From: an uncultured Anaeroplasma sp.
GTDB lineage: Bacteria; Bacillota_I; Bacilli_A; Acholeplasmatales; Anaeroplasmataceae
Length of the DNA: 64,000 nt
Direction: 5' to 3'
Assembly (NCBI GenBank): GCA_947592005.1
Contig: CANQDJ010000001.1
Location: 11,035 to 75,034, forward strand
In this document: positions 10,518-35,767 of the stretch, piece after piece
Numbering within the stretch: the first letter of the stretch is position 1
Layout of the letters: the number at the start of each line of letters is the position of its first letter
Made by a program: the position numbers and the translations under genes
Notes under the pieces: generated by a model
Told to the model about the DNA's origin: nothing
The model's input: the letters and a program-made list of their open reading frames with translations, nothing else
The model's database searches: none

Positions 10518-10607
10518 AATAAAACCTCCTAAAATTTTAATTTAATGCCTTTATCAGCATTAAAGAATATGATATAATTTTATATATAATTACAAGGAGG
10601 CAGTATT

Positions 10608-11129: not shown

Positions 11130-11147
11130 AAACAAGAGGTGTATGGT

Positions 11148-13328: not shown

Positions 13329-13771
13329 GAGTTTTGATTCAACGTTGTGCGTATGCGTCTTGTAAAGTCAATGGAGAAGTAACCGGTCAGATTCAAAACG
13401 GAATGGTATGTTTGGTTGGGTTTGATAAAAAAGATAGTCTGAAAGAAGTGGAAATGTTGGCGAAAAAGACAATAGGGTTGCGGATATTCGAAGATGAAAA
13501 TCATAAAATGAATTTAAGTGTTCATGAGGTAAATGGATCTATATTGGCGATTTCGCAATTTACGTTGTATGCGGATTGTAAGCATGGAAATCGACCATCT
13601 TTTACCGAAGCGATGGATTTTGAATCCGCAAAAGAATTATATGATGCATATTGTAAGGTATTAGAAGCAAATACTATATCTGTTCAAAGAGGAATATTCG
13701 GGGCAGATATGAAGATAGAACTTTTGAATGATGGTCCGGTAACTATCTTTTTGGATAGCGATTGTCTGTAG
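13325..13771 (+). CDS. dtd: D-aminoacyl-tRNA deacylase
   Basis: MRVLIQR, SQFTL, FGADMKIELLNDGPVT. Confidence 0.98.
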   Translation: MRVLIQRCAYASCKVNGEVTGQIQNGMVCLVGFDKKDSLKEVEMLAKKTIGLRIFEDENHKMNLSVHEVNGSILAISQFTLYADCKHGNRPSFTEAMDFESAKELYDAYCKVLEANTISVQRGIFGADMKIELLNDGPVTIFLDSDCL

Positions 13772-13784
13772 GAGGAGGAAGCGT

Positions 13785-19960: not shown

Positions 19961-20085
19961 ATTTTATAAAATAGAAAAAATTTTCTATAAAATTGTCATA
20001 AATTGTTGTACGAAAAAAAGGACTTGTTTTGTCGAAGGTATTTTTTTTAATATTAGATTCCTTTATAATTTCAAATGGTGATGCT

Positions 20086-20439
20086 ATGGGATTGAATGTG
20101 GGAGTATATGTGAAAAAGAATACCCTTATATTGCGGTTAAAGGGTGAATTGGACGATGTTACGGTTACAGATTTACGAACAAGGATCAGTCGATATATTG
20201 ATGATTACAAGATTAAGCATTTGGTGATCAATGTGGAGAAATTGGAGTTTATGGATTCTTCGGGAATTGGGTTTATTATCGGTCGTTATCACCAATTAAA
20301 GCGAGTTGGTGGAGATGTGGTTTTATGTAATATTCATCAAAAGATTGAAAGAATTGTCCAATTATCCGGATTAAATAAAATATGTTTGATTCAGGAGAAT
20401 GAAGAATCTATTTTAATGGGAATAGGGGGAAGAAATTAA
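20086..20439 (+). CDS. spoIIAA: Anti-sigma-F factor antagonist SpoIIAA (STAS)
   Basis: LRLKGELD and EFMDSSGIG phosphoacceptor motif; start re-placed at ATG 20086. Confidence 0.9.
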   Translation: MGLNVGVYVKKNTLILRLKGELDDVTVTDLRTRISRYIDDYKIKHLVINVEKLEFMDSSGIGFIIGRYHQLKRVGGDVVLCNIHQKIERIVQLSGLNKICLIQENEESILMGIGGRN

Positions 20440-20855
20440 TGGAAAATGAAGTACGATTAACGTTTTTATCAAAGCGATGTAATATTGCGGTGATCCGAAA
20501 TATGTTGGGAGCGATGTTGGTGGATAATAATCCTACCATTACGTTTATCAATGAATTAAAAACAGTTGTCAGTGAAGCAATAACGAATGCGATTGTTCAT
20601 GGGTATGATAATAAAGAAGATAAGTATATCGAAATGAATGTTTTCTTGTATGCGGATTGTGTTAAAATCGATATTATCGATAAAGGTTGTGGAATTGAAG
20701 ATGTGGCTCTAGCCAGAGAGGCTTTATATTCTACGAAAGCCGATGAAGAACGAAGTGGATTGGGATTTACGATTATGGAAATGTTCAGCGACAGTTTGAT
20801 TGTTGAGAGTAAAAAAGGAGAAGGAACGTACTTACATTTAGAGAAGAATTGGTAG
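20439..20855 (+). CDS. spoIIAB: Anti-sigma-F factor/kinase SpoIIAB
   Basis: ELKTVVSEAITNAIVHGY, DKGCGI, ERSGLGFTIME, GEGT GHKL motifs. Confidence 0.92.
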   Translation: MENEVRLTFLSKRCNIAVIRNMLGAMLVDNNPTITFINELKTVVSEAITNAIVHGYDNKEDKYIEMNVFLYADCVKIDIIDKGCGIEDVALAREALYSTKADEERSGLGFTIMEMFSDSLIVESKKGEGTYLHLEKNW

Positions 20856-20884
20856 TATAAAATTTTCTATAAATAGGCATAATA
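20855..20884 (+). promoter_or_regulatory. Sigma-G-type promoter of spoVA
   Basis: GTATA-N18-CATAATA matches GHATA-N18-CATAHTA. Confidence 0.6.
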
Positions 20885-20899
20885 GAATTAGGTGATATT

Positions 20900-21343
20900 A
20901 TGCAAAATACAACGAAATATTATGAAAGTCTTGTAAAAACACAACGAAATTATAAACAGATGACGATAAGTTTTTTACAAGCCTTTTTCTTTGGTGGTTT
21001 ATTATGTCTTTTCGGACAAGTTATTTTAACTATATTGAATTTGTTTTTTTCGCCGAATGAATCGAATTTTTATCTTTTGATAATCATTATTTCTCTTGCC
21101 GCAATTTTATCTGCAGTGGGTATATATGACGATATGGGACAAATTGCCAAATGTGGGCTTGCCATACCAATTTCCGGTTTTTCCAATGCATGTGTCAGTG
21201 CGGCAATGGAATATAAAAAAGAAGGGCTTGTTTTGGGAATAGGGAGTAATTGTTTGAAACTTGCGGGTAGTGTTATTGTATTGGGGACTTGTAGTGCGAT
21301 TATTGTTTCTTCCATAAGATATATTATAGAGGTTTTAATATGA
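20900..21343 (+). CDS. spoVAC: Stage V sporulation protein AC
   Basis: AFFFGGLLCLFGQ, GLAIPISGFSNA, KLAGSVIV. Confidence 0.9.
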   Translation: MQNTTKYYESLVKTQRNYKQMTISFLQAFFFGGLLCLFGQVILTILNLFFSPNESNFYLLIIIISLAAILSAVGIYDDMGQIAKCGLAIPISGFSNACVSAAMEYKKEGLVLGIGSNCLKLAGSVIVLGTCSAIIVSSIRYIIEVLI

Positions 21344-22317
21344 ATTTTATGTTTGAGAATAGATTTCTTTTGGATAGTATTGTTTTAAGTGGTGAATTGG
21401 AAAAAGAAGGACCGATAGGAGATTATATTGATTACAGTTCAACGTTTATAAATACTTCGTTTGAAAATAGCGAGATAGCCATGTTATATCAAAGTATGGA
21501 TATGTTATTGGAAAAATTAAATCTAACGCAGGAAGAAATAGATTTGGCAATCGGGGGAGAATTATCCAATCAACTGACGACAACCAGTTATACGATGAGA
21601 AAATTATGGATTAGTTTAATCGGTATTTATTCGGCATGTTCTACGATAGCGTTGGGAATCGGATTGGCAAGTTTACTTTTGGATAATCCGAAGATTCAAA
21701 ATATTTTGGTTTTTACTTCCAGCAATAATCAAAGTGCGGAGCGACAATTTCGAAATCCCAATGAGTATGGAGGAGAAAAAGAAAATACGCAAACTTTTAC
21801 GTCTACAATAGCCGCCAGTTGCATTATAACAAAGAAAAAATCGCCGATTCGCATATCTTCATTTACGATTGGTAAAGTGGTAGATATAGGATTTTCTGAT
21901 GCTTTGGATTTTGGACGAGCAATGGCACCAGCCGCTATTGAAACGATTTTGGAGCATTTTAAGGAAAGAAGGACAAAGCCTTCGGATTATGATTTGATAT
22001 TAACGGGGGATTTATCGAGTTTTGGATATGAACTTGTTTTAAAGGCATTGGAAGAGCGGTTTGGAGAAATTCGTAATTATAGAGATTGCGGACTTTTGTT
22101 ATATGATATCGATCGACAACCTGTTTTTGCAGGAGGAAGCGGTCCGGGAACTAGTGCGGCAGTTTTGTTATCCTATATAAAAAAAGAAATGCTTATTCGG
22201 AAATATCGGCGAGTTCTTTTATGTGCGACAGGAGCACTTATGAATCCGACAATGATCAATCAAAAGAATTCGTTACCTTGTATCGCTCATGCTATAGAGT
22301 TGGAGGTGGCAGAATGA
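21340..22317 (+). CDS. spoVAD: Stage V sporulation protein AD
   Basis: EKEGPIGDYID, ACST, SAERQFRNPNEYG, GRAMAPAA, AGGSG, ATGALM. Confidence 0.93.
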   Translation: MNFMFENRFLLDSIVLSGELEKEGPIGDYIDYSSTFINTSFENSEIAMLYQSMDMLLEKLNLTQEEIDLAIGGELSNQLTTTSYTMRKLWISLIGIYSACSTIALGIGLASLLLDNPKIQNILVFTSSNNQSAERQFRNPNEYGGEKENTQTFTSTIAASCIITKKKSPIRISSFTIGKVVDIGFSDALDFGRAMAPAAIETILEHFKERRTKPSDYDLILTGDLSSFGYELVLKALEERFGEIRNYRDCGLLLYDIDRQPVFAGGSGPGTSAAVLLSYIKKEMLIRKYRRVLLCATGALMNPTMINQKNSLPCIAHAIELEVAE

Positions 22318-22664
22318 TTTTTCTTTGTGCTTTTATGATTGGTGGCGGAATATGTGCACTCGGTGAACTCATAAAGTGTCTGCTTAAATGGACTACAGGA
22401 CATATAACGGTTTTGTTCGTATCACTAGGAACATTGTTGGATTTTAATCATTTTTATGAAAAATTGATTGATATCGGCGGGGCAGGAGCACTTTTGCCGA
22501 TCACCAGTTTTGGTCATTCTTTGGCTCATGCAAGTTTTGAGAAGGCTCAACAAGTGGGATTTATAGGTATTTTTACGGGTATGTTTGATAAGACGTCCGG
22601 TGGAATCGCCTTTACTATATTTATAGCGGTTATAATTGCTTTGTTATTTAAACCGAAATCTTAA
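22314..22664 (+). CDS. spoVAE: Stage V sporulation protein AE (SpoVAEb)
   Basis: AFMIGGGIC, GGAGALLPITSFGHSL, LLFKPKS; ATGA overlap with spoVAD. Confidence 0.9.
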   Translation: MIFLCAFMIGGGICALGELIKCLLKWTTGHITVLFVSLGTLLDFNHFYEKLIDIGGAGALLPITSFGHSLAHASFEKAQQVGFIGIFTGMFDKTSGGIAFTIFIAVIIALLFKPKS

Positions 22665-22670
22665 ATGGAA

Positions 22671-22696
22671 AATCTCCGCTTTGTCGGAGTTTTTTT
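22671..22696 (+). terminator. Terminator of the spoVA operon
   Basis: CTCCG/CGGAG stem followed by T7. Confidence 0.7.
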
Positions 22697-22715
22697 ATTT
22701 TATAAAAATTATAGT

Positions 22716-22735
22716 AAAAAAGAAGACAATTATAA
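22716..22735 (+). repeat. Left 20-bp direct repeat of the island
   Basis: AAAAAAGAAGACAATTATAA, identical to 34964-34983. Confidence 0.8.
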
Positions 22736-22771
22736 TTCCTTAATTTTTTTAGAACGTTAAATCTAGATACG

Positions 22772-22793
22772 GGATTGTGGAGTTCCACAGTCC
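22772..22793. repeat. Short hairpin of the GG(A)CTGTG/CACAG(T)CC family
   Basis: GGATTGTGG-agtt-CCACAGTCC. Confidence 0.45.
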
Positions 22794-23361
22794 ATATTTT
22801 ACATAAAAATGGGTATTTATTACAAGATACTACAATTTTCTTGACAAATATCTTTAATTTCACTTAAAATCAAAATGAATTATGAAAAAAATGACGATTG
22901 AAAAAATAATTCCTTTGACAAAACTAGGAAACAGGAATGTACAAATATGCTTAGGTAAAAATGCATAGATGTAACATCTAATGAGAAGCAAAGTATGGTT
23001 TAGAACAAGTAGCAAACCAAAGGAATCAAGATGCAAAATGAATTTCTTTCATTTCTATTTTATAAAAATATGAAAGAGTTTATATTTTTACTTATCAAGT
23101 GTATTTAACTTAAATAAATCAAATTTGATAGTAATAAAAAATATTGATATTTCAAAAAAGGATTCATTTATGAATTATTAAAACAATTTCAGTAAATTCA
23201 AGGGAATTAAAAGAAATTTGTTCAAAGTTTGAAGCCTTTTTAGAAAATTAGTAAATAGAAAAAGTAATTGAACTATTACCTAGCGTATAAAAAACTTATC
23301 AAAGATGATTTTCAAATCATTTATAAAAAAACTTAATTCTTGTGTAGAGGGAGGTATAAAT

Positions 23362-24549
23362 ATGGCAGTTGCAGAAGTTATTAAGTTTGAGGGCCCGCAA
23401 GATGCCCTAGTGTGGAAAAATGGTGGTAGAGAATATATGATTAGTGGGAATGAGAAATTTAATGCTCTTTCTCAATTAATTGTTGAAGAATTCCATGAAG
23501 CGATTTTATTTTCTAATGGTATGGCATTGGATTTATTTAAGGCAGGACGCTATACATTATCTACCCAGAATATTCCTATGCTATCTAAAATGTATGAGAA
23601 CATAGTAGATGGATCACCATTTCCTTGTAAAGTTTACTTTATCAATAAAGTTCATCAATTAGAATTGAAATGGGGTACACAAGGAGGAATCACTTTAAAT
23701 GATCCGATTTATGACATTTTTCTTCATGTTGGTTGTTGTGGGACTATGGCAGTTAGAATCTCTGACTCAAGGAAATTTTTATTAAAATTTGTAGGAAATA
23801 AAGATGTTTTTGAAAATAAGGATCTTTTAATGAATTTAAGAGGTATTATTTCTTCCAATGTAAAAAATTTCATATCAAAAATAATGATTCAAGGTAAAGT
23901 AAGCTTTTTTGATATGAATGCTCATATCTTTGATATTGGGCAACTTGTTGCTAAAGTTTTAGGAACAATTTTTGATGGATATGGATTATCTATCGAACAA
24001 TTTAATATTGAAACCATTGACGTACCAAAAGAAGATTATGAAGAAATTAATAAGGCAAAGAGTTTAAATACATCTCGTAAGATCCAAGGATTTACATGGC
24101 AAGAAGAGCAAATGAATAAGATTTTAGATGATGCTGCTAAAAATGAAGGTGCCGGTAATATGATGGGAACTGGTATGGGTATTGGAATGGGATTTGGTAT
24201 GGGTGCCCCTATGGGACAAGCCTTTGGAAATATGGGCAATTCCATTTTTGGAGAAACAAAAATTAACTCAGGGAAAGATTCTAATCAAACTTCCAAGCCA
24301 ACTCAAATCAATAATAATGGTGGAGAAAATTTAAATATTAATAACTTCTTTAATGCCGGTGCTAAAGATCAATCTAATGATCAATCGACTACTATTTGTC
24401 CTTCATGTGGAGCAAAATTAGCAAATGGTGTTGCATTCTGTTCATTCTGTGGAGCGAAGCAACAGTTAACTGCTGTTTGTCCAACATGCCATGCTCAAGT
24501 AGAAGGTTCAGCTATGTTCTGTTCATTTTGTGGTACTAAATTAAAATAA
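23362..24549 (+). CDS. SPFH/Band-7 domain protein with C-terminal double zinc ribbon (YdjI-like)
   Basis: SQLIVEEFHEAILF, FPCKVYFINK and KWGT motifs; GMGIGMGFGMG; four CxxC pairs (CPSC, CSFC, CPTC, CSFC); GGAGG RBS before ATG 23362. Confidence 0.85.
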   Translation: MAVAEVIKFEGPQDALVWKNGGREYMISGNEKFNALSQLIVEEFHEAILFSNGMALDLFKAGRYTLSTQNIPMLSKMYENIVDGSPFPCKVYFINKVHQLELKWGTQGGITLNDPIYDIFLHVGCCGTMAVRISDSRKFLLKFVGNKDVFENKDLLMNLRGIISSNVKNFISKIMIQGKVSFFDMNAHIFDIGQLVAKVLGTIFDGYGLSIEQFNIETIDVPKEDYEEINKAKSLNTSRKIQGFTWQEEQMNKILDDAAKNEGAGNMMGTGMGIGMGFGMGAPMGQAFGNMGNSIFGETKINSGKDSNQTSKPTQINNNGGENLNINNFFNAGAKDQSNDQSTTICPSCGAKLANGVAFCSFCGAKQQLTAVCPTCHAQVEGSAMFCSFCGTKLK

Positions 24550-24564
24550 GGTGGGAATGAAAAT

Positions 24565-25296
24565 ATGAAAATGAGTACAAGAAAGTATAATTATATTGGG
24601 TTAATTATCGCCTATAGCATTTTATTTGTGTTATTTAACGTTTTAATATTTGTAATTTTTAAGCCTTGGAATTTTGAAAAAACTGCTTGTATAGCAGCAT
24701 TTTGGTGGTCATATGCATTTTTTACTATAGCATTTTTAGCTCAATTAAGTTCTCTATTTGTAATTGATAGAAAAAAAGAAATTACGGCTGTTTTCATGGG
24801 AATTCCATTATTTTATATTTCTATTGGATATTTCCTAGCTGCAACATTTGTATCGGCTTTATTTATGGTATTGGCTTCATTTAAAGTGGAAACACCGCTA
24901 GAACTTGTTATCGTATTGCAAATTGTCTTATTGGGGCTTTACTTAGTAGCATTTATTTTAGCTTTGTTAACTAAGCGAACAATTAGTGATATAGGCGAAC
25001 ATCAAAAAGAAAATGTTGCTCATATTCGTATAATGGTTGATAAAGTTGAGTTGTGTGCTGAAATGATAGAGGATCAAAGTACTAAAAAGAGCATAATGGA
25101 ATTTGCAGAAAATATAAGATACTCTGATCCAATGAGTACAAAAGTAGTAGAAAATTTAGATAAAAAATTGAATTTGCTTATTGATGAATTAAAGTCTGCT
25201 ACATTACTAAAAGACTTAGATAAGATACAACTTTTATTAAGAGAAGGGAACCTTACTTTATTAGAAAGAAATAAGATGATTGTAAGTAATAAATAA
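24565..25296 (+). CDS. Hypothetical multi-TM protein with cytoplasmic helical tail
   Basis: About five hydrophobic helices, then a helical domain containing IRYSDPMS. Confidence 0.8.
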   Translation: MKMSTRKYNYIGLIIAYSILFVLFNVLIFVIFKPWNFEKTACIAAFWWSYAFFTIAFLAQLSSLFVIDRKKEITAVFMGIPLFYISIGYFLAATFVSALFMVLASFKVETPLELVIVLQIVLLGLYLVAFILALLTKRTISDIGEHQKENVAHIRIMVDKVELCAEMIEDQSTKKSIMEFAENIRYSDPMSTKVVENLDKKLNLLIDELKSATLLKDLDKIQLLLREGNLTLLERNKMIVSNK

Positions 25297-25308
25297 GGGG
25301 GGACTTTT

Positions 25309-27303
25309 ATGGCAATTAAACTATCAACCCATAGATGTGTGGATTGCTTTGGCAAGTTAGAGTTTAATAAAATACAAAAAGTATTTGAATGCCCATATTG
25401 TGGAAGAGTTTATGAAAAAGATATGCAATTTGAAAAAATTCAAATTGATGGATTGGCTGGAATAAATGATACTGCTCGTGCAGTTTTATTAGATATTGCC
25501 AATCAAAATTTTGATAGTGCATGCAAAAATTTAGATGAATGTGAAAAACTAAATCACAATTATATCGGGACATGGATTGCAAATATTTGCTACTACCTCT
25601 TTATGGCCAGTGCTAATAAATCCGATGCAAAGGTATATGTTGCCAAATCAAAATATTATTTAGATCAGATCAAAGAAGAGCGTTCGAATGTTGAAGAAGA
25701 TGAAAAAAATTTTTATGATGTTTTGACACAGCCTGAAATCTATGCAGTAGTTTATGCAACCTTTCTAAATGTAGGATTATTAGAAAGAGCATCTTATATT
25801 GCAAATTTCTTAGAATTTGATAAAATTTTAAATTCTAATTTAAATAAAATATTACTGAACATCTGCTTAAAAGCAAATGCATTTTCAGAAGTTGATCAAA
25901 TTGTGTCTAATATAGATTTTATTGATAAGCGATATACTTTGTATGAAGTACTCAAACATTATCCGGATACAGAGCAAAAAATAAGTAATATTAAACATTT
26001 ATTTGAAGCAAATGCATTTACCTACAAAGATACATCGCTTGTTAAAAAATATATAGAAGAAACAAATGATTCGTCTATAACAAAATTAGAAGTAATGGTA
26101 CAAGCATTTCAATTAAAAATGGATATAGATATATCTGAAATTATTGACAATATTCTTGATGAAAAATGTGATGATAAATTAGTGGAAAGAACATTCTCAG
26201 CTATTAAAAATGTTAAACTATCGGAAACAGATGCATATAAACTACTAGACTATTGTATGAGTGATCAATGTACAAGTTGTAAAGTTGCAAAGGCAGGTAT
26301 CGACACTTTAAAGGCAAACGGGAGTATATACGAGATACGTGCACAAAGTATAATAAACCTATTCAACTATTCAAAGTTAAATATTGAAGAAAAGAATGAA
26401 CTTGTAAGCCAAATATTTCAGAATTTTAGAGTCAGTCAAAAAGGCATGGATCTATTGAGTAACTTTTTGCTTCTTGCATATGAAGATGATGAGGAAAATA
26501 GATATAAAGTTATATGTCCTATTTTGGAAAAAAGTACTTCTATAACTCTAAATACAATGACAGATTATTTAATAGGAAAAAATAAAGATGGTAATTTTAA
26601 AATAGACATTTCTAAATTGATTTTTAGTTTGAAAATAAATGAGGTATATTTTAAAGGATTACTATCAAATTATCTTTTGAATACAACAGACTCTATTCAT
26701 GTGGTTTTTGAGATTATAAAGGAATTAGCCGCCAAGAAATGTGATATAAATCAAGAAGCATTAAAAGTTTTAATTGTAAAATATGATCTTAGTTCGGATA
26801 TGCTCACATTTGTGTTTAATATGAATATTCAAGTATCAAATGATCTTTTAGAAATTTATTTAAAAAAAGCAATTTCTAATGGAACACTTAATGCTAATGT
26901 AATCGCAAAGTTACTAAATTACAAAACTAACATATCAAATAAAACGATTTCTGATTTTATATTAAAAGTAAAAGATAATCAGATTAAAACTAATTTCATA
27001 GGAAAACTTATTCAGAATTGTTCTGACCTGCGATTTGCATCTTCCTATACATGCTCTTATTTAGGCCATAGTATTGTTTGCAATTTTATACAAAATTATT
27101 TTTTTACTTCAGTTGACGAGCCAAGTACCCGTTTCATCATTTGTAAAGAACTTATGAATTATAAAATTAAGCTCTCAGATGATATTTTAGTAGATAAAAA
27201 GAAAAAATCATTTAAAAAATACATTTTAGAAAATAAATCTAACTTATCAACTGAGGTGGTTGATTTATGTGATTCTTTAGGTGTATTTAAAATGTTTTTT
27301 TAA
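25309..27303 (+). CDS. Zn-ribbon plus alpha-helical repeat protein
   Basis: N-terminal CVDC...CPYC ribbon; recurring L..YL....D....K..I..L units. Confidence 0.75.
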   Translation: MAIKLSTHRCVDCFGKLEFNKIQKVFECPYCGRVYEKDMQFEKIQIDGLAGINDTARAVLLDIANQNFDSACKNLDECEKLNHNYIGTWIANICYYLFMASANKSDAKVYVAKSKYYLDQIKEERSNVEEDEKNFYDVLTQPEIYAVVYATFLNVGLLERASYIANFLEFDKILNSNLNKILLNICLKANAFSEVDQIVSNIDFIDKRYTLYEVLKHYPDTEQKISNIKHLFEANAFTYKDTSLVKKYIEETNDSSITKLEVMVQAFQLKMDIDISEIIDNILDEKCDDKLVERTFSAIKNVKLSETDAYKLLDYCMSDQCTSCKVAKAGIDTLKANGSIYEIRAQSIINLFNYSKLNIEEKNELVSQIFQNFRVSQKGMDLLSNFLLLAYEDDEENRYKVICPILEKSTSITLNTMTDYLIGKNKDGNFKIDISKLIFSLKINEVYFKGLLSNYLLNTTDSIHVVFEIIKELAAKKCDINQEALKVLIVKYDLSSDMLTFVFNMNIQVSNDLLEIYLKKAISNGTLNANVIAKLLNYKTNISNKTISDFILKVKDNQIKTNFIGKLIQNCSDLRFASSYTCSYLGHSIVCNFIQNYFFTSVDEPSTRFIICKELMNYKIKLSDDILVDKKKKSFKKYILENKSNLSTEVVDLCDSLGVFKMFF

Positions 27304-27322
27304 GAAAGAGAGATGATAAGGA

Positions 27323-29119
27323 ATGACAGAAGAAGAATATAGAAGAGAACAAGAAGAACGAGAACAGTTAATTAATCAGTATAATTCTTTAGTAGAAAAA
27401 TATAATCAACTTGTTGTTTATGCAGAACAGATTGAAGCAGAATTAAATACTGCTCAAGCAAATACAATAACTATTATTAGTAACGCAAAAGCAATGGCAA
27501 CACATGTGCTTCCTCGCTTGGATAATTCTATTACAATGGCAGATGAAGTACAAAATTTAACTTATGATGTTATGAAGGCTATAGAGGATTTGAAGAATAG
27601 ATATTTTAAAATTAAAAATGTCAGCACCTCTTCTAAAAAATTAACAGAATTAGATGATCTTTATAACCGTTTGTATCGTTTTTATAATAAACTTCGCAAA
27701 ATTTCATTAGCATATGTTATTGGAGTTGATTCAAATATTATAAGCAATGAAACACTTAGAGTTGAAGTTGAAAAACAGCAATTAATGAATAGTGATTATT
27801 GGTTATCATATGCCTTGTCTGCTGTAATGCTGTGGATAAATGATGAAAAAAAGGCATCTACACGAGCAGTTGAGAAAGCATTAGAAATGGACGAATATAA
27901 AACGTCTTTATATTTCATGCTAATCAACTTACGTTTTGGTCGAACAACTGCTGCCCAAAAATGGTATGAAGTATTTTCTAAAGGGGTAGATATTTTCAAT
28001 ATTCGTCCCGAATGGGAATTTATTTTACAAGCATATTTACATCATGGTTTTGGTTATGACAAAGAATTTGAGCGAAGGGTTAAAAAGCAATTTACAGATC
28101 TTTTGGAGGAAATGCGAAAATCTTTTGCTAGATATGAAAGTAAGGTTATAGAAAAAGTAACAGAATATGGCTTTGCCTTCCCGTATTCAACAGCCAAGAC
28201 ATATTCATATCTACAACTATATTGTAAAGATTATGGTTTATTACTAGAATTGCTAACTTGTGCTGAAAAAAATGGAGAATTAGCAAAATGGTATGCTAGT
28301 ATTTATGAACAAGATGATACCTCTGCAGATACCTTAAAAGAAAACATTGAGAATGTTTTATATGATCTTGTATCAGAATATGATTCAAAAGAATATGAAA
28401 TAATTAAGCAAATTAAATATCACGAATATGTTATAAAATCAAAAGGTGATATTGCTATGGCAAATCGTATGGTTAATATGCAAAATGCTGAATCCGAAGA
28501 GAAAATCACATTAGATGAATTAATGTTTAATTTTGCTTTTGCAGATCCAAATGATAAAGTAGATAATAGATTACAAAAATTTGCTTTATCGTTTATGATT
28601 GATTTAATTAAAAAGGGGTTTGCAGAATATCAAATAAAATATCGAGATAAGGAAAAAGAAAAATATACATTTTATATAGATGGGTGTACTTTTACAGGAA
28701 ATGATTTAACTATAGATGAATCTCGTAAAGCAATTGCAGATTATTATAAAGCTAACAAAAGAAAACTTCTTTTTGCAGATAAAAAATATACAGGCTTATT
28801 ATGGGCTTCTATCGGTTTTACTGCTTTAACCATTTTGATGACGGTGATTATTATTTTGATGAAGAGATTTGTTACTGCTACAACAATTATATTTGCTATA
28901 TCAGTAGTTTTAACAATATTATTTTGGATTTTATGGGCATTACGCCGACAATCACGTACAAAAAACATTCAAAAGAGAATGCTTGAATCGCTTGAAAAAT
29001 TAAATAAAGTAAATGAGGATTTTATTCAATGGAAAAAAGATTATCAAAATTCAGATGTAGAACAAAACGGCTTGCAAGAAACACTAAACAATTATAAATG
29101 GGAGGAAGAACATGAGTAA
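27323..29119 (+). CDS. Coiled-coil/TPR-like/2TM protein, paralog 1
   Basis: DYWLSYAL..W...KTSLYFMLINLRFGR motif; two C-terminal TM helices. Confidence 0.8.
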   Translation: MTEEEYRREQEEREQLINQYNSLVEKYNQLVVYAEQIEAELNTAQANTITIISNAKAMATHVLPRLDNSITMADEVQNLTYDVMKAIEDLKNRYFKIKNVSTSSKKLTELDDLYNRLYRFYNKLRKISLAYVIGVDSNIISNETLRVEVEKQQLMNSDYWLSYALSAVMLWINDEKKASTRAVEKALEMDEYKTSLYFMLINLRFGRTTAAQKWYEVFSKGVDIFNIRPEWEFILQAYLHHGFGYDKEFERRVKKQFTDLLEEMRKSFARYESKVIEKVTEYGFAFPYSTAKTYSYLQLYCKDYGLLLELLTCAEKNGELAKWYASIYEQDDTSADTLKENIENVLYDLVSEYDSKEYEIIKQIKYHEYVIKSKGDIAMANRMVNMQNAESEEKITLDELMFNFAFADPNDKVDNRLQKFALSFMIDLIKKGFAEYQIKYRDKEKEKYTFYIDGCTFTGNDLTIDESRKAIADYYKANKRKLLFADKKYTGLLWASIGFTALTILMTVIIILMKRFVTATTIIFAISVVLTILFWILWALRRQSRTKNIQKRMLESLEKLNKVNEDFIQWKKDYQNSDVEQNGLQETLNNYKWEEEHE

Positions 29120-30746
29120 TACAAATCAAATCTTAAATGAATTGAATGCTACAGTTGGTGGTTTTACTGCTTCAGTAGATGTTAAAGTTTCAAAAGTAAA
29201 TGAGATAACTGATCAAATAAGAAAAAATGCTGATACAACATTTCAAGAAATTAATAATTTTAAGCAAAGTATGATTGAAAATGAGCAGATGCAAAGTGCT
29301 CAAGAAAACATATTGAGATTAAACCAAATTATTAGAGAAAGATTTTCTGATTATGATAGTATTAGAAAAACAGTAATGGGTGTAGTAAAAGATTTTGATA
29401 TCGATCTTGTTAGAAATAAGACCATTACCGAATTATCTGAAGAATTATGGATGACAAGTTCTAGATATTGGTTATCTTATACCTTAATAGCCATCAGTGC
29501 TTGGGCAAGTGATAATAAAGGGGTTGCTAAAAATGCAGTGTCCGAATCGTATAGAGCAGATAAAATAAAAACATCATTATTCTTTTGCTTAATGAATTTA
29601 CGATTTAATCGTGTTGATGTTGCAAGAGAGTGGCTATGTGAATATTTCAACTCTATTATTCCAGAAGATATCAAAGATGAAACGGCCATTTTGCTTCAAT
29701 CTTATATTAATGGATTGTTTGGAATAGATAAAGAAATCGAATATGTCGTTAAGGACGTGGTTGATAGTTGGATTGAAGCCATAAATATCGTTGATGAAAA
29801 TAATGAAAAGTTATCTGCAATGTTTTTAGAATACATTCAAAACATTCCACCTAAAATTGATTTTAAGTCCGAGTACTTAAAACAATATTGTAAAGCTTAT
29901 CCAAATATGGGTTTTCCATATGGTGAGGCAAAGAAGTATGATGTTTTAATAAAAAAAATAAAATCATTAGATGTAGAAAATATTATTCAAAATGCTGCTG
30001 ATTATAAAGCAAGAGTAGATGCTGTTTTAAGAGATTTAATTACAAATTATGATGCTGAAGAATTGGAGTTGAAGCAACAACAGGAATATTATAATTTAGT
30101 CATTGAAAACAAAGGAAAAGAAGAAATAGCCGAACAACAATTTAATGCAATATTAGAAAAAAGATCTTCCAAACAAAACATTGGAGAAAAATGTGTTGAA
30201 TGGGCACTTTATTCAAAAAGTGATTCTATTAATATACATGTTCAAAAATTTGGTTTTCAAAATACAAAAAATTGGTTTTTATCAGCTATAAATACGTGGT
30301 CAAATGAGTTCGAAAAAGAATTTCCAGATGAATATCCAATTCAAGTGGAAGAATGGGAATGTGTATCTAATGGAGATGATTTAGAGGAACAAGAAATTAG
30401 TTTAAGAGCATATTTAGAGAAAAATAAATTTAAGATAAAATATGTTAATAAACCAAATATTATCTCTCTCATATTATTTGTAATTCTACTTACAGTTAGT
30501 ATTTTTGTAAAAGTGAAATTTGATGCACCAACTCCTGTATTTTTAGGAATTCTTGGAGGCTCTCTATTATTCCTTTTGATATTAGCTATTAGAATATTTA
30601 CAGCTTCCTCTAGATTTAATAAGAAAGTTAAATATTTGCTTTCTTTGTTAACAGGTACGATGAGTGAGTTAACTGAATATCGTAAAACGTATGCAGAAAA
30701 TAAAGATAAAAAAGCTGAACTTTTTGCTTTAATAGAACAATTATAA
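29112..30746 (+). CDS. Coiled-coil/TPR-like/2TM protein, paralog 2
   Basis: RYWLSYTL..W...KTSLFFCLMNLRFNR motif; two C-terminal TM helices. Confidence 0.8.
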   Translation: MSNTNQILNELNATVGGFTASVDVKVSKVNEITDQIRKNADTTFQEINNFKQSMIENEQMQSAQENILRLNQIIRERFSDYDSIRKTVMGVVKDFDIDLVRNKTITELSEELWMTSSRYWLSYTLIAISAWASDNKGVAKNAVSESYRADKIKTSLFFCLMNLRFNRVDVAREWLCEYFNSIIPEDIKDETAILLQSYINGLFGIDKEIEYVVKDVVDSWIEAINIVDENNEKLSAMFLEYIQNIPPKIDFKSEYLKQYCKAYPNMGFPYGEAKKYDVLIKKIKSLDVENIIQNAADYKARVDAVLRDLITNYDAEELELKQQQEYYNLVIENKGKEEIAEQQFNAILEKRSSKQNIGEKCVEWALYSKSDSINIHVQKFGFQNTKNWFLSAINTWSNEFEKEFPDEYPIQVEEWECVSNGDDLEEQEISLRAYLEKNKFKIKYVNKPNIISLILFVILLTVSIFVKVKFDAPTPVFLGILGGSLLFLLILAIRIFTASSRFNKKVKYLLSLLTGTMSELTEYRKTYAENKDKKAELFALIEQL

Positions 30747-30790
30747 TATAGAATTCAGGGAAAAATTTTAGTAAGAATAAGGAGAAAAAT

Positions 30791-30997
30791 ATGGAAAAGA
30801 ATGAAAAAAGCGTAAATGCTACAGAAAATGCTACAGAAAATGTTACAGAAAATGCTACAGAAACTGAAAACTTTTTAGATAGTTTTAATAGTGATGAGGA
30901 AGAAATTATGGATTTATCTACTGAAAAACTAGATGAATTAAATAAGAAACTTCCAAATTGGAGTATTGAACCACCTCATAAATTTCTTAATAAATAA
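30791..30997 (+). CDS. Small acidic protein with NATE tandem repeats
   Basis: AAGGAG RBS; stop/start overlap (TAATG) with the next ORF. Confidence 0.7.
   Translation: MEKNEKSVNATENATENVTENATETENFLDSFNSDEEEIMDLSTEKLDELNKKLPNWSIEPPHKFLNK
30815..30862 (+). repeat. 12-bp tandem repeat, four copies
   Basis: AATGCTACAGAA x2, AATGTTACAGAA, AATGCTACAGAA. Confidence 0.9.
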
Positions 30998-31491
30998 TGA
31001 GAAAAAAGGAAGGTCAAATCAATTATTATAGTGATTGGCTTAAGATATTTAATAAAATAAAATCTACTGGTAATTTCTCTGATTTCTATTTAGACATGGT
31101 GGTTGGGAATCTAAGAGATGTTCAATTCAGTTATAATAATTTTTGTAAAGAATTAGTTAATTTTATTAATTTTATTTTAAATTACTATATTAAAAAGATG
31201 AATGAAAGAATTAATTTTTATATATCTCAAACAAATTTAAACTCTATTGTATATTCCATCGATTATTTTTTCTTGCAAATAAAGAAAATCAAATTTTATG
31301 AGTGTTTACAATTTTTAAAAAAAGAGTTTAAGGTAGAATTGACTTTAGAGATAGATAAAACTATTGATAACTATCTAAAGCAATTAGAGAATTATATTTA
31401 TTCTTCATCTATGAACAATTCTTTTTTTACAGAATTACTTTATATTATTAAAAAAAATAAAGGGATGGTTTTTAATGGCGTGTTATCTTGA
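30997..31491 (+). CDS. Hypothetical protein (164 aa)
   Basis: Overlaps both neighbouring genes (translational coupling); no motif recognised. Confidence 0.65.
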   Translation: MRKKEGQINYYSDWLKIFNKIKSTGNFSDFYLDMVVGNLRDVQFSYNNFCKELVNFINFILNYYIKKMNERINFYISQTNLNSIVYSIDYFFLQIKKIKFYECLQFLKKEFKVELTLEIDKTIDNYLKQLENYIYSSSMNNSFFTELLYIIKKNKGMVFNGVLS

Positions 31492-32974
31492 GGTTTTAAA
31501 AGAAATAGAAATTTACCTTTATGCACGAACACCTTTGATTATTTTAAAAAGTGGAGAAAGAGATCGTGTAGAAAGATTATTAGGTGAAGTGAGTAGGAAT
31601 ATAAAACATGATATATATGGATACAGTTCCATTAGACAATTATATAAAATGAATTCTTTATCAACAATTTGTTCTACAGAAGAGCCTTTACAATATATTT
31701 CTCATGCATTTAAGAAAAAAAGAGGTGAAATATATTCTTTGATAGATTTTGGTTATTTAGAAAATGATAATCTTTATAGTAGAGATATTTTAAATTTAAT
31801 TTATACGGCAAGAGAAAATGAAGGAACTCTCATTCTTGTTTCAGATGATTTGATATGGAATAGAATTAGTAATTTAGGCTTGATATGTAATTTAAATTAT
31901 CCTTCTCAAAAAGAACGTATTGAGCAAATCGAAGCCTTCGTTGAAAAATACAAGAAACTTTATAAAAGTTGTTGGACTAAAGAAGAAATAATATTAGCTT
32001 CTACTGTATTAAAAGGATTTTCTGAAATTCAAATAGAGAATATACTTTCTGCCAATTTAATTAAAAAAAATGGATTTTATAAAGAAGATATTTTACTTTT
32101 GGCCAATCAAAAACAATTAATTTATGGAAATATATCTAATTTGAAACAAATTATTATAGATAAAAATATTGAATTGTATGGATTAGAAAACTTTAAAAAA
32201 AGAATGGATGAAAAAAAGAAAGTTTTCTTTGCAGATGAAAAATTGCTAGAAAAATATAACATTACATATCCTAAAGGAGTATTATTAACAGGTATTCCTG
32301 GCTGTGGGAAATCTTTATCAGCAAAATATATTGCTGCCAAATGGAATTTACAGTTGTTTAAATTCGACATTGATACAATTTTTAATAAATATGTGGGCGA
32401 GAGTGAACGAAAAATGCAGGAGGCACTCGCTTATGCAGATCGTATGGCACCATGTATTCTTTGGATAGATGAAATAGAAAAGGCATTATCAATTTCTTCT
32501 GATGGAAATGACACAGGGAAAAGGATTATGGGGCAATTCTTGTTTTGGCTTCAAGAATCTAAAAGTAGGGTATTCTTAATTGCAACGGCAAACGATATTT
32601 CAAAATTACCTCCGGAACTCTTTAGAAAAGGAAGATTTTCAGAAATATTTTTTATTGATTTGCCTAATGAGGTTGAAAGAAAAGAATCTTTAAAATATTA
32701 TATTCAAAAATCTCTGCATATGGATTTGAATGAAAATGAAATGACACAACTTTTAGACATTACAAATGGATTTAGTTATGCGGATTTAGAAAGTTCCATA
32801 AAAGAAATAGCCCAATCATTTATTATTAATGAGGAATTCAATTTGGATTTCAATTTAATTAAAAACAAACTACTAGAAGTTATTCCATATGAAAGAACTA
32901 ATCCTGACACTGTAAAAAAAAGTAGACAATGGGGAAAAGAAAGAGCAACATTAGCCTCTTTAGAAAGGAATTAA
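31475..32974 (+). CDS. Ycf46-like classical-clade AAA ATPase
   Basis: Walker A GIPGCGKS, pore loop KYVGESE, Walker B ILWIDEIEK, SRH TANDISKLPPELFRKGRF; degenerate N-terminal module. Confidence 0.92.
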   Translation: MACYLEVLKEIEIYLYARTPLIILKSGERDRVERLLGEVSRNIKHDIYGYSSIRQLYKMNSLSTICSTEEPLQYISHAFKKKRGEIYSLIDFGYLENDNLYSRDILNLIYTARENEGTLILVSDDLIWNRISNLGLICNLNYPSQKERIEQIEAFVEKYKKLYKSCWTKEEIILASTVLKGFSEIQIENILSANLIKKNGFYKEDILLLANQKQLIYGNISNLKQIIIDKNIELYGLENFKKRMDEKKKVFFADEKLLEKYNITYPKGVLLTGIPGCGKSLSAKYIAAKWNLQLFKFDIDTIFNKYVGESERKMQEALAYADRMAPCILWIDEIEKALSISSDGNDTGKRIMGQFLFWLQESKSRVFLIATANDISKLPPELFRKGRFSEIFFIDLPNEVERKESLKYYIQKSLHMDLNENEMTQLLDITNGFSYADLESSIKEIAQSFIINEEFNLDFNLIKNKLLEVIPYERTNPDTVKKSRQWGKERATLASLERN

Positions 32975-32975
32975 A

Positions 32976-34769
32976 ATGGCAAATGAAGATATAAAAAGTA
33001 AGATAAATGAAATGAATCATGCAATCAGTCGTATTCAAAGTGAAATTGCTATAATTGAAGATGAACTGAATGCTATTTCTCAAAGTGCGTATGCAAATAA
33101 GAATTTGTTGATTGCATCTAGTGCTCTAGTTAATAACTCTATGGAAAACAACAGCAATGTCTTAGTATATTCTAATAATATGATAAGACAAACTTATGAT
33201 GCTCAATTACAAATTAAAGAGTTATTCTTTATTTTTAAAGATATAGAAACTGCAAATAAGAAAATTAGGGCTTTAAATAATAAATTATTCTATGAGTTTA
33301 AAAATCAATCTAAGGTTAGAAAAATAGTTACTGGTTTTTTAGATAATTTAAACCTTGATTTGGTTGATAATGAAAGAATTTATAAGGCCATAGAAAAGGA
33401 ACATCTTCAAACTCCTGATTTTTGGCTAACTTATGTTCTTTTAGCAATTATGGCTTGGAAGCAAGAGGATAGAAAACAGGTTGAAAAATGTATGAATGGA
33501 GCCTTAACTTTAAATAAGAAATCGACTACCGTTTTCATGATGTATTTTAATTTGATAATAGGAAGAGTTGAACCTGCATTAAAGTGGTTTAGTCTTTATA
33601 AGGAAATGGAAAAAGTTGGAAAAGATGATAAAACATTATTAATGTTAGTTTGTTCAATTTCTAATAAAATTAATCAAATAGAAGAAACTACAGATGTTAT
33701 GACAAAAGAAATTTTGAATTATATTCAATCTGAAGTTTCTAAAGGTATGGAGGAAGTAAATCAAGCTGAAGTAGTAAGCAATATTGAAAAATATTTAGAA
33801 TCTTTTGATTTAAAAGAAACAATGGCTTATGATAATTATCGTAAATATGTTAAAGATTATCAAGATATGGCAGATGCTTTATCTTTAGCTAAAAATAATG
33901 CTGAAATTTTAGATTATTTTGACGAACTATCACATGTTCTTTTAAATGAAAGAAATACATATTTAGATGAATATATTCAAGAGGTAATAAATGAACCTTG
34001 TGAAGGCGAAAAAGACATTGTCGAAGAGATTGCTTATAATGAGGAAATTATAAAAACAGTTAACATTATAAAAGAAAGAAATGGTTTAGTAACTACTAAC
34101 TCTTTTAAAGAGTTAGCTAAAGAAAAATTCGAAAAGAAAAAGATACATGATGAGGTTACCTTAAATTCATTTTTAGAAATTTATAATTGGACTTATGGAG
34201 GAAAAAATTTAAAGATAACTACTCTTGCTAAATGGAATTTATTTGTTTTAAATAAACCTTTTACAGTTGCTGCATATGAGCAATATTGTCAAAAGTATCA
34301 ATCATTAAATCATAAGACCCATCAAATTTCGATTGGAGATTTTTCATGCAAAACAGAATTTAAGAATCAAGAAAAGGATATTGAAAATGTAAATACATAT
34401 ATTAATGATAGAAAGCAATATCTTTTAAAGAAGGCAATAAAGCCTATGTTCTATGTTGGTATAGGACTTGCAATATTATGTTTGGTATTAATGATAATGT
34501 GTCTTACAATGATAAAATCAGTTCAGACTAAAAATATTCTCTCAATTTTAAGTGGTGTTGGCATAGGTGTATTTGCTTTAGTGGCTGTTTGGGCCTATGT
34601 AAAAAATATATTTAAAAAGAAAAATATCGTAAATAAAATGTCAAATGAACAAGCAAAAATTAAAGATATTGTTATTCATCTTTATGAAGAAAAGGCTGAT
34701 TATGATAGGGAATTCCTCCAAGCTGATGATATATCAAATCAAATAAAAGCATTTTTTGAAACATTTTGA
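32976..34769 (+). CDS. Coiled-coil/TPR-like/2TM protein, paralog 3
   Basis: DFWLTYVL..W...STTVFMMYFNLIIGR motif; two C-terminal TM helices. Confidence 0.8.
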   Translation: MANEDIKSKINEMNHAISRIQSEIAIIEDELNAISQSAYANKNLLIASSALVNNSMENNSNVLVYSNNMIRQTYDAQLQIKELFFIFKDIETANKKIRALNNKLFYEFKNQSKVRKIVTGFLDNLNLDLVDNERIYKAIEKEHLQTPDFWLTYVLLAIMAWKQEDRKQVEKCMNGALTLNKKSTTVFMMYFNLIIGRVEPALKWFSLYKEMEKVGKDDKTLLMLVCSISNKINQIEETTDVMTKEILNYIQSEVSKGMEEVNQAEVVSNIEKYLESFDLKETMAYDNYRKYVKDYQDMADALSLAKNNAEILDYFDELSHVLLNERNTYLDEYIQEVINEPCEGEKDIVEEIAYNEEIIKTVNIIKERNGLVTTNSFKELAKEKFEKKKIHDEVTLNSFLEIYNWTYGGKNLKITTLAKWNLFVLNKPFTVAAYEQYCQKYQSLNHKTHQISIGDFSCKTEFKNQEKDIENVNTYINDRKQYLLKKAIKPMFYVGIGLAILCLVLMIMCLTMIKSVQTKNILSILSGVGIGVFALVAVWAYVKNIFKKKNIVNKMSNEQAKIKDIVIHLYEEKADYDREFLQADDISNQIKAFFETF

Positions 34770-34916
34770 TAGTGCTATTTAATAGAAATATCCCTAATTA
34801 TTTTTTGACTTTAGAAATTATAAAAGGATAATTGTTAAGGATATTTTTCCAATCTGTAGGAATTCATAAAAAATGGAGAAATCAATCTTCTTCCATTAAA
34901 TACTATAACTTACTTA

Positions 34917-34943
34917 CAATCTCGCATAAAGCGGGATTGTTTT
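34917..34943 (+). terminator. Terminator at the island right end
   Basis: CAATCTCGC-ataaa-GCGGGATTG followed by TTTT. Confidence 0.65.
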
Positions 34944-34963
34944 GACGCTTTAAAATATAGGAA

Positions 34964-34983
34964 AAAAAAGAAGACAATTATAA
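34964..34983 (+). repeat. Right 20-bp direct repeat of the island
   Basis: Identical to 22716-22735; contains the probable -35 (AAGACA) of the downstream promoter, 17 nt from TG-n-TAAAAT. Confidence 0.8.
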
Positions 34984-35038
34984 AAAAATATGTTAAAATT
35001 AAATAAATAAGGAAAAAGTATAAAAATTGGAGGTATAT

Positions 35039-35767
35039 ATGAATAATATAAAAGACGATGAATTGGATAAATTTCTTGAATCAATCAATAAAACTACAGT
35101 TACTGCTAGTATTGATGAAGAAACGTTATATAAGGTGGCTTGTTCATGTGTGGAATCCGATATGGTTTCTATAAATAGTATTCAAAAAGAATTTCTTTTT
35201 GGATTTAGTCGAGCTAATGCAATTGTAGATGAATTGGAGAGAAGAGGAATTATTTCTAAGAAAAATTCACAAACTGGTAAAAGAAAAGTTTTAGTAAATC
35301 AAGAAGAATTAGACAAAATGTTTTTAGAAAAAAAGGAAGATTTCTTTTTTGATAATGATGAATGTTTTTTGAAAAATATAAGTTCGGAGAACAGAGAAAT
35401 ATTAAAAAAATATAACTTAATGAAGCCACTTCGTGAAATGTTGAAAAATCAAAGTACCTTTTCTCTTGATGAGGTAGATTATGAGGAGGAGTTAGAATTC
35501 GGAACAATCTTTGGGTATATATATGGTACGTTTACTTTTAATGAACCTCTTACACTCGAAAGATTGGAATTGGCAAAAGGAAATATCAATTGTATTATGA
35601 GTGTGAATGCTTGTTCAACTTTTCCGGCTTCCGAAGTAAACAATTTAATAAGTAAAGTAAGGAATTTGGCAGAGCTAGATGACCTTATATGTGGTATTGA
35701 AATAGATGATAGTTTGAAAGATGGAGAATTTAAAATTTTGGCATTATTTGTATATTTTCCGTTTTAG
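35039..35767 (+). CDS. FtsK gamma domain fused to an FtsZ C-terminal-like domain
   Basis: VSINSIQKEFLFGFSRANAIVDELERRGIIS matches the FtsK gamma winged helix; SLDEVDY and IMSVNA...EV...ICGIEIDDSLKDGEFKI match the FtsZ T7 loop and C-domain. Confidence 0.7.
   Translation: MNNIKDDELDKFLESINKTTVTASIDEETLYKVACSCVESDMVSINSIQKEFLFGFSRANAIVDELERRGIISKKNSQTGKRKVLVNQEELDKMFLEKKEDFFFDNDECFLKNISSENREILKKYNLMKPLREMLKNQSTFSLDEVDYEEELEFGTIFGYIYGTFTFNEPLTLERLELAKGNINCIMSVNACSTFPASEVNNLISKVRNLAELDDLICGIEIDDSLKDGEFKILALFVYFPF

Follow-up and report, generated by a model that had tools for sequence, protein, structure and literature searches.

The central result of this analysis is that nine genes in a 64,000-nucleotide stretch of DNA from an uncultured Anaeroplasma sp. 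(contig CANQDJ010000001.1, hereafter the window) make up a complete copy of a tightly conserved cassette that moves horizontally, and that this cassette matches no described system. The source is a 1.49 Mb metagenome-assembled genome (MAG) of a low-GC Firmicute, 97% complete, in which the cassette occupies positions 23362-34769 of the window, between spoVAC-D-E (20900-22664) and a CAAX-protease gene (35886). Its nine open reading frames (ORFs) all lie on the plus strand and are tightly packed, the junctions from g1 to g9 consisting of gaps of 15, 12, 19, 44 and 1 nt and overlaps of 8, 1 and 17 nt. In the reading that we favour, with slightly less than even confidence, the cassette is a membrane-docked unfoldase apparatus serving biological conflict. 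The nine genes are as follows.

23362-24549, plus strand: g1, a cytoplasmic SPFH protein with a Gly/Met-rich linker and two C-terminal Zn ribbons
24565-25296, plus strand: g2, a protein with four transmembrane (TM) segments and a cytoplasmic helical C-terminal part, with a conserved YSDPM motif; no family match (Pfam, NCBIfam)
25309-27303, plus strand: g3, an N-terminal CxxC...CxxC Zn ribbon followed by a helical region of ~620 residues; no TM segment, no family match
27323-29119, plus strand: g4, paralog 1, with a helix (3-134), a TPR-like domain (142-445), a TM hairpin (487-545) and a C-terminal helix
29112-30746, plus strand: g5, paralog 2, better conserved than g4 and g9; four- and five-gene cassettes carry its ortholog as a single-copy protein
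30791-30997, plus strand: g6, an acidic protein of 68 residues, with ENAT repeats encoded by a 12-nt tandem repeat and the conserved C-terminal tail KKLPNWSIEPPHKFLNK
30997-31491, plus strand: g7, 164 residues, fold without assignment, overlapping the start of g8 by 17 nt
31475-32974, plus strand: g8, a tandem AAA+ ATPase with a degenerate D1 (1-230) and active-type motifs in D2 (Pfam, model and alignment)
32976-34769, plus strand: g9, paralog 3, more diverged than g4 and g5

An earlier note on this DNA had described nine co-oriented ORFs that overlap or lie at most 44 nt apart, among them an SPFH protein with Zn ribbons, a second Zn-ribbon protein, three paralogous proteins with two TM segments and a classical-clade ATPase with an intact YVG pore loop, and had recognised neither another enzyme nor a named system. 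This description stands in every detail that was checked. The ORF coordinates bear out the packing, Pfam identifies Band_7_1 (PF13421, 8e-37) together with Zn_Ribbon_1 and DZR in g1, the CxxC...CxxC ribbon is present in g3, and the window's g8 carries K-Y-V-G with its other motifs intact. The paralogs g4, g5 and g9 share 20-24% pairwise identity, and their profiles align with E-values of 1e-43 to 1e-64 (hhalign). Above the Pfam cut-offs lie g1 and g8 alone; the other seven proteins have no Pfam match, and PADLOC, NCBIfam and PHROGs add nothing for them. PADLOC-DB 2.0.0 has no match for g1-g7 or g9, and we found no description of this composition in Pfam, NCBIfam, PHROGs, PADLOC 2.0.0, PDB sequences and folds or the papers searched.

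The conservation of the cassette is apparent from its distribution. In a large protein collection g4 has 108 homologs, all annotated as 'hypothetical' and none with a Pfam domain, and two of these, from a Clostridia MAG and a 'Chloroflexi' MAG, sit in an identical nine-gene order. Scanning one genome per GTDB species yielded 79 loci from other species, and because family hidden Markov models (HMMs) found the nine genes colinear on a single strand in 59 of these 79, the arrangement is far beyond chance; most of the 20 incomplete loci are truncated by contig ends. The loci come from Lachnospiraceae, Oscillospiraceae, Ruminococcaceae and Christensenellaceae, from Bacilli and Anaeroplasmatales MAGs and from Anaerolinea MAGs, and the cultured carriers are Hungatella hathewayi WAL-18680, Lachnospiraceae bacterium AC2029, Pseudoflavonifractor phocaeensis An569 and Ruminococcaceae bacterium P7. 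Among the flanking ORFs no neighbour is conserved (the largest flanking cluster comprises 4 loci), and the cassette is therefore self-contained.

That the unit is mobile, as the earlier note had also proposed, is seen in its low GC content, a 20-bp direct repeat around it, an empty site, its patchy presence, and core relatives on plasmids and in a satellite record. The island has a GC content of ~0.27 versus ~0.34, and is bounded by two exact copies of a 20-mer.

22716-22735: direct repeat, left copy, exact 20 bp, AAAAAAGAAGACAATTATAA
34964-34983: direct repeat, right copy, the same exact 20 bp

The 20-mer is the end of a 50-nt imperfect direct repeat with 74% identity (22686-22735 and 34934-34983), both copies of which contain a terminator-like hairpin; no recombinase is encoded within the island. 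In the empty site of a same-genus genome, spoVAE is directly followed by CAAX protease, flavin reductase and HAD genes. The g4 family is present in none of 24 same-genus genomes, and the cassette in one of 16 same-order genomes.

The ATPase g8 is ~500 residues long and has no TM segment. Pfam detects a single AAA module (PF00004, 1e-30), and the motifs lie in D2, with Walker A at residues 273-280, the pore loop at 305-308, Walker B at 328-336, sensor-1 at N373 and arginines at 384 and 387. Across 79 sequences conservation is 100% for the D2 Walker A and B motifs, the pore loop K(W/Y)VG, the Asn of sensor-1 and the two Arg fingers; in the family consensus the pore loop reads K-W-V-G. D1 has no P-loop: the Walker A position reads SGERDRVE, of which the family consensus keeps E28, R29 and R31. 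An AlphaFold2 model (predicted local distance difference test score, pLDDT, 88.4) contains two alpha/beta-plus-lid modules, and Foldseek aligns full-length g8 with D1+D2 of Drg1/AFG2, p97, Cdc48 and Rix7 (TM-score 0.63-0.73, E down to 6e-20). The best PDB sequence matches are VAT and p97 D2, and a word-index search with the N-terminal half of g8 retrieved cassette orthologs alone. Given the invariant D2 motifs, the missing P-loop of D1 and the alignment of both modules, g8 is a double-ring Cdc48-like unfoldase with a structural (dead) first ring and no N-domain, not a Vps4-type ATPase.

What g8 shares with Cdc48/p97/VAT, AFG2/Drg1 and Rix7 is the whole-length D1-D2 alignment, the second region of homology of the classical clade and the pore loop. 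It differs from Cdc48/p97 in starting directly with D1, without the N-terminal double-psi-barrel domain for substrates and cofactors, and in a D1 that lacks Walker A and B; its membrane partners have no counterpart among Cdc48 cofactors, and it reaches 102 bits against a cut-off of 803 for the NCBIfam CDC48 model (TIGR01243). Other classical AAA+ families fit no better. For the Vps4 type, g8 has no MIT domain, is a D1-D2 tandem and not a single AAA module, and scores 84 bits against the NCBIfam CdvC cut-off of 650. For the HflK/C-FtsH type, it has neither a Peptidase_M41 match nor a TM segment, and scores 73 bits against the FtsH_fam cut-off of 600. The best PADLOC match of its AAA core is IetA of the IetAS system (4e-33), in which the AAA module alone aligns. 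We ruled out identity with IetAS, as g8 scores 87 bits against a cut-off of 510 for NCBIfam IteA_antiphage (NF042959) and the cassette encodes no IetS subtilase (peptidase S8).

All three paralogs combine a helix of 130 residues with a TPR-like domain and a TM hairpin. In the g4 model (pLDDT 86.8) a continuous helix leads into the TPR-like domain, a small hairpin, the TM hairpin with its 4-residue outer loop and a long C-terminal helix, a topology that places everything except the 4-residue loop in the cytoplasm. Foldseek searches of PDB (no match below E 0.07) and of BFVD with this model gave at most weak TPR matches, and a profile search of PDB sequences with g4 gave generic coiled coils alone. 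The family is large: a search of 1.84 billion representatives gave 905 clusters at 50% identity (E < 1e-3). A maximum-likelihood tree resolves each of g4, g5 and g9 as a monophyletic group with 100% support, and the branching within the three groups is congruent; the triplication is therefore old, and the three paralogs evolved as a set. Such a co-evolving set is what would be expected of an obligate heteromer.

The protein g7 was recovered in 80 of 80 loci after one profile iteration. In g6, neither the length nor the sequence of the acidic N-terminal part is conserved among homologs, and the tail motif (L/F)PxW(D/S)xxP(P/A)xxF/I-basic is kept from Firmicutes to Proteobacteria. The repeat in the window's g6 lies at 30814-30861, where ~4 copies of the 12-nt unit AAATGCTACAGA encode ENAT/ENVT repeats.

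Smaller relatives elsewhere help to order these parts. The record of the Streptococcus satellite prophage Javan368 contains a full-length g8 relative preceded by a g7-family protein (9e-13) and a single g4/g5/g9-family protein (1e-70), the latter belonging to a family of >3000 members. A Blautia five-gene cassette, headed by a member of this family, encodes a coiled-coil protein with two TM segments (CC-2TM protein), a double-Zn-ribbon protein, a g7-like protein, the AAA ATPase and a 168-residue protein. Plasmids of Komagataeibacter and Comamonas carry a CC-2TM protein, a 61-64-residue protein, a g7-like protein and the ATPase. The plasmid-borne small proteins end in FPEWDLLPATQFVRRR and LPAWDLLPATPFIRRVK and the Blautia ribbon protein in GLPSWDVVPPQIMVRRKKKK, as g6 ends in KKLPNWSIEPPHKFLNK; the g6 HMM has no significant match to the Blautia ribbon protein, and this tail similarity was judged by eye and is backed by the two proteobacterial examples. 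Because g5-g6-g7-g8 are orthologous to the small cassettes by HMM (E 1e-70, 9e-13 and 6e-158) and by this common tail motif, and because the single-copy protein of the small cassettes is sister to g5 in the maximum-likelihood tree, g5-g6-g7-g8 are the ancestral core, with g4 and g9 as duplicates and g1-g3 as an added module. The window's form differs from the small cassettes in its three paralogs, in the additional SPFH, four-TM and Zn-ribbon module and in lacking a 160-170-residue fifth protein; the small core cassettes are without an SPFH protein altogether. PADLOC has no match for the partner proteins of the five-gene cassette, and no description of the four- and five-gene cassettes was found in print. 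In the Blautia loci (L095-L098, 10001-14886) the 168-residue last protein (ICYLGKPYEVHTLD) matches no family and is without homologs among the nine-gene loci. The Javan368 record (L094, MK448457.1) ends with a four-gene core version at 9674-14257, its boundary being the stop of the last gene.

Variants of the nine-gene form point to what the cassette may do. In the sole same-order relative, an Anaeroplasmatales MAG (L013, 6961-9861), g1 and g2 are missing and the g3 homolog, 966 residues long and directly followed by g4, carries in place of the Zn ribbon an N-terminal extension of ~365 residues with a TIR domain at 177-296 (TIR_2, 2e-13). The genes upstream in this locus encode RNase J and dapA. 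In 29 of 70 loci an insert lies exactly between g3 and g4, and in ~25 of them it comprises two proteins, C1 and C2, and a small protein from one of the families C3, C4 and C5.

L003, L009, L010, L012, L014, L019, L020, L026, L028, L029, L034: loci with a three-gene insert between g3 and g4
L040, L041, L047, L049, L052, L062-L064, L067, L068, L077: further loci with a three-gene insert between g3 and g4

C1 is a HerA-like ATPase of ~900 residues (mad8, 3e-16; PDB HerA, 9e-6) whose N-terminal half is without assignment and which matches HerA and VirB4, not FtsK. C2, a putative acid-tailed toxin of the peptidase or deamidase kind, ranges from 215 to 1133 residues, with a long acidic disordered N-terminal part and no signal peptide, and its C-terminus varies together with the gene that follows: a Tox-PL1-type domain (Gln_amidase 'papain fold toxin 1'; six members, 3e-11) is always followed by C4, a C39-like papain fold by C3 and an HExxH domain by C5. 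Other domains among the insert proteins are HD_4 (2) and Endonuclea_NS_2 (1). Decayed remnants of the insert are present in L015, L024, L066, L072 and L082, four of which (L024, L066, L082 and L015) retain the small protein. Insert-bearing and insert-free loci are interleaved in the tree (L009 with L001, L020 with L016), and the insert has therefore been lost repeatedly. The likeness to known HerA-effector pairs (SIR2-HerA, DUF4297-HerA, mad8 of MADS) and to polymorphic toxin-immunity pairs is confined to this insert in the relatives, and C2 differs from the known proteins in having acidic disordered N-termini instead of known trafficking domains.

It is the TIR-g3 fusion and the insert of HerA-like ATPase, toxin and small protein that lead us to read the cassette as a conflict apparatus: what these relatives have added suggests a part in bacterial conflict and not the everyday repair of membranes. 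A model that unites these data has at its core a membrane-docked protein-unfolding machine with g8 as a hexamer-type motor and g7, translationally coupled to g8, as its probable cofactor. Held by their TM hairpins, g4, g5 and g9 sit on the cytoplasmic face of the membrane; given the paralogy and co-evolution described above, they would probably form a heteromer through their 130-residue helices, and this heteromer would be the platform or receptor on which g7-g8 dock. The conserved motif of g6 suggests a docking peptide or a model substrate, and g1-g3 form an exchangeable membrane module in which g3 is a Zn-ribbon helical scaffold. The ATPase may then unfold, activate or hand over effector proteins at the membrane, the SPFH/four-TM module being the putative output in the window's form and TIR or peptidase proteins the outputs elsewhere. 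We lean modestly towards effectors that act in the producing cell, as in abortive-infection-type immunity, over effectors that are exported against competitors.

Export of this kind deserves consideration in its own right. In a dedicated, type VII secretion (T7SS)-like toxin exporter, the TM hairpins of g4, g5 and g9 together with g2 would form a conduit and g8, joined by the HerA-like ATPase in loci that have it, would unfold and drive acid-tailed cargo, an arrangement that we regard as improbable. The same holds for its corollary that g6 is a small exported substrate or pilot peptide and the window's copy an apparatus without in-locus toxins. A further version, which we hold to be just as doubtful, makes the cassette family a class of bacterial membrane machine not recognised before: a Cdc48-like unfoldase on a heteromeric TM-hairpin coiled-coil/TPR receptor would thread acid-tailed proteins into the membrane or across it, and Gram-positives would thereby have a further route of toxin export or delivery, new to science and scaffolded by SPFH in the nine-gene form. 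Export would account for the ~25 loci with in-operon toxin-like proteins that lack signal peptides and are paired with co-varying 'immunity-like' small proteins, and for the small proteins that outlast toxin loss, as orphan immunity genes do. The extended form has two ATPases and several membrane proteins, a composition typical of secretion systems, and the long, acidic, disordered C2 N-terminal regions and g6 would suit threading. Against this, 41 of 70 loci, the window's included, are without the ATPase-toxin insert, the window's genome has no homolog of it, and no component has an extracellular domain with which to cross the wall. The HerA-like protein is nearest to HerA proteins, some of them from defence complexes, and not to EssC/FtsK or VirD4, and the TIR-g3 fusion, which has no adjacent immunity gene, fits intracellular action. 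Nor does Pfam find in the window's cassette an FtsK/SpoIIIE-type EssC/EccC ATPase or a WXG100 or LXG protein, as in T7SSb/ESX systems.

A role in conflict faces difficulties of its own, and several observations weigh against it. The window's genome has no C1-C5 homolog and no TIR, HerA-like or toxin gene, its g3-g4 gap being 19 nt, so that the proposal rests on the relatives; among these the TIR-g3 fusion occurs in 1 of 79 loci, and the HerA-toxin genes may be an independent system lodged at a point that tolerates insertion. The 116 nearest neighbours of 60-odd loci belong mostly to housekeeping families, with no integrases, and ~5 of them match PADLOC models (1e-10); there is therefore no defence-island signal, and the defence-island context for which the earlier note proposed a check was not found among the nearest neighbours. 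Scans of IMG/VR with this protein family returned no relative. The Javan368 record ends exactly at the cassette, which makes its membership of the satellite uncertain. In Blautia the five-gene cassette has a fixed housekeeping context, between ilvC/LysR and VanZ/leuA, and one CC-2TM protein sequence occurs in >11,000 assembly blocks, a picture closer to that of a stable physiological trait. A phage origin of the cassette was rejected on the IMG/VR result, phage GenBank records having AAA-domain relatives alone, with the exception of the Javan368 record.

The housekeeping neighbours and the stable fixation of the five-gene relative in Blautia favour a different explanation, namely PspA-independent membrane repair or remodelling, a view of the earlier note, in which the AAA+ ATPase would disassemble a membrane-bound coiled-coil/2TM polymer at a site organised by SPFH, by analogy with PspA-SamGHI or ESCRT-III/Vps4. 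We consider it unlikely, though it has further points in its favour. B. subtilis YdjI/SamI combines a band-7 domain with a C-terminal Zn ribbon (PMC11237479; PMC13713150), and g1, a cytosolic Band_7_1 SPFH protein with C-terminal Zn ribbons whose cassette also encodes a membrane protein and a further protein with a Zn ribbon, shares this architecture and the setting of pspA-ydjGHI (pspA-samGHI). The cassette differs from that operon in that it has no PspA, that g2 lacks the TPM domain of YdjH, that g3 is unlike YdjG (one ribbon instead of two, no TM segment and no NTF2-like domain detected) and that nothing there corresponds to its six other genes. The closest precedent in print is a report of an 'inactive classical AAA + classical AAA' protein whose neighbour is PspA, a divergent Snf7 of the membrane or another coiled-coil protein (Ravi et al., 2024; PMC11237479, Text S2.2); likened by description only, this ATPase has the same domain architecture as g8 and membrane-proximal helical partners. 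That report mentions a neighbourhood and nothing of the nine-gene composition, and the partners of g8 are not PspA or Snf7 homologs.

Several results speak against repair. No PF04012 (PspA) gene is present in the locus or, by six-frame search, anywhere in the 97%-complete genome, and PspA lies above cut-off in 6 of 30 cassette-bearing genomes, so the Psp independence claimed in the earlier note holds. When every cassette family was aligned with the PspA of cassette genomes (hhalign), probabilities were at most 2.5%; with both searches negative, a hidden PspA or ESCRT-III in the cassette was rejected. No polymerising subunit with an ESCRT-III/Snf7 fold was found either, the g4 model and the PDB profile search giving TPR and generic coiled coils alone, and the central domain of the paralogs is TPR-like and not a polymerising hairpin. 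Patchy distribution, horizontal gene transfer and insertion with direct repeats sit poorly with a repair function, and the TIR and toxin add-ons are hard to explain by it. As for the earlier interpretation, a conserved, mobile, Psp-independent unit is what we find, whereas the Vps4/ESCRT-like picture is not borne out, given a g8 that is tandem, Cdc48/AFG2-like and without MIT, the lack of PspA likeness and a g4 model that is weakly TPR.

SPFH and classical AAA+ proteins recur together in biology, as HflK/C with FtsH. This pairing suggests membrane-protein quality control as another possible function, with receptors at an SPFH site recruiting the Cdc48-like ATPase to extract damaged or tail-tagged proteins, as in HflK/C-FtsH or erlin-p97. 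It would make sense of the unfoldase pore loop of g8 and of the TPR-like, membrane-anchored receptors, and the tail motif of g6 and of the Blautia Zn-ribbon protein could be a recognition tag. We nevertheless think it very unlikely: the cassette contains no protease domain and is accessory, patchy and mobile instead of core, the core cassettes do without SPFH, and the effector add-ons would go unexplained. Among these alternatives we continue to favour the membrane-docked unfoldase of biological conflict, at the strength given at the outset.

Expression signals and neighbouring genes complete the description of the locus.

22841-22870, plus strand: best candidate for a sigma-70-like promoter, TTGACA-18-TAAAAT (11/12), ~490 nt upstream of g1, by consensus match alone
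34916-34942, plus strand: terminator-like hairpin, CAAUCUCGC-AUAAA-GCGGGAUUG followed by UUUU, with a 10-bp stem, ~150 nt after g9
35027-35767: g10, 246 residues with an N-terminal FtsK-gamma winged helix (PF09397, 8e-13), just outside the right repeat

The start of g1 is most likely at 23362, with GAAGGAGGA 7 nt before it and with homologs whose N-terminus reads MA(I/V)xEVIKFEG; the ORF is open from 23305. Upstream of it, 22736-23361 is an unusually long non-coding stretch of ~630 nt. An Rfam scan of 22600-23400 gave no credible riboswitch or leader upstream of g1, and sigma-70-like matches in the region are as many as expected from shuffled sequence. The hairpin after g9 corresponds to the single terminator of the earlier note, though a consensus terminator scan does not have it among its listed sites. 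As a tenth cassette gene g10 was rejected, since it shows no linkage to the cassette in the 79 other loci; the empty site in the same-genus genome (L089) is also without it. On the left, at 20029-22664, spoIIAA (STAS) and spoIIAB (HATPase) are directly followed by spoVAC-spoVAD-spoVAE, with no sigF in between.

Six of the nine proteins fall outside every described family, and few gene clusters of human-gut Blautia are assembled as often as the small relative. If our reading is correct, bacteria would here couple protein unfolding to the membrane in a new manner, through a Cdc48-like double-ring ATPase combined with dedicated membrane receptors, a conserved tail-motif peptide and swappable SPFH, TIR and toxin modules. 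Should the cassette mediate immunity, it would be a large multi-component system that defence-island methods have missed; should it mediate export, Firmicutes would have a secretion route not known before; and should it serve repair, ESCRT-like systems would have in it a counterpart that works without PspA. The cultured carriers make the question directly testable.

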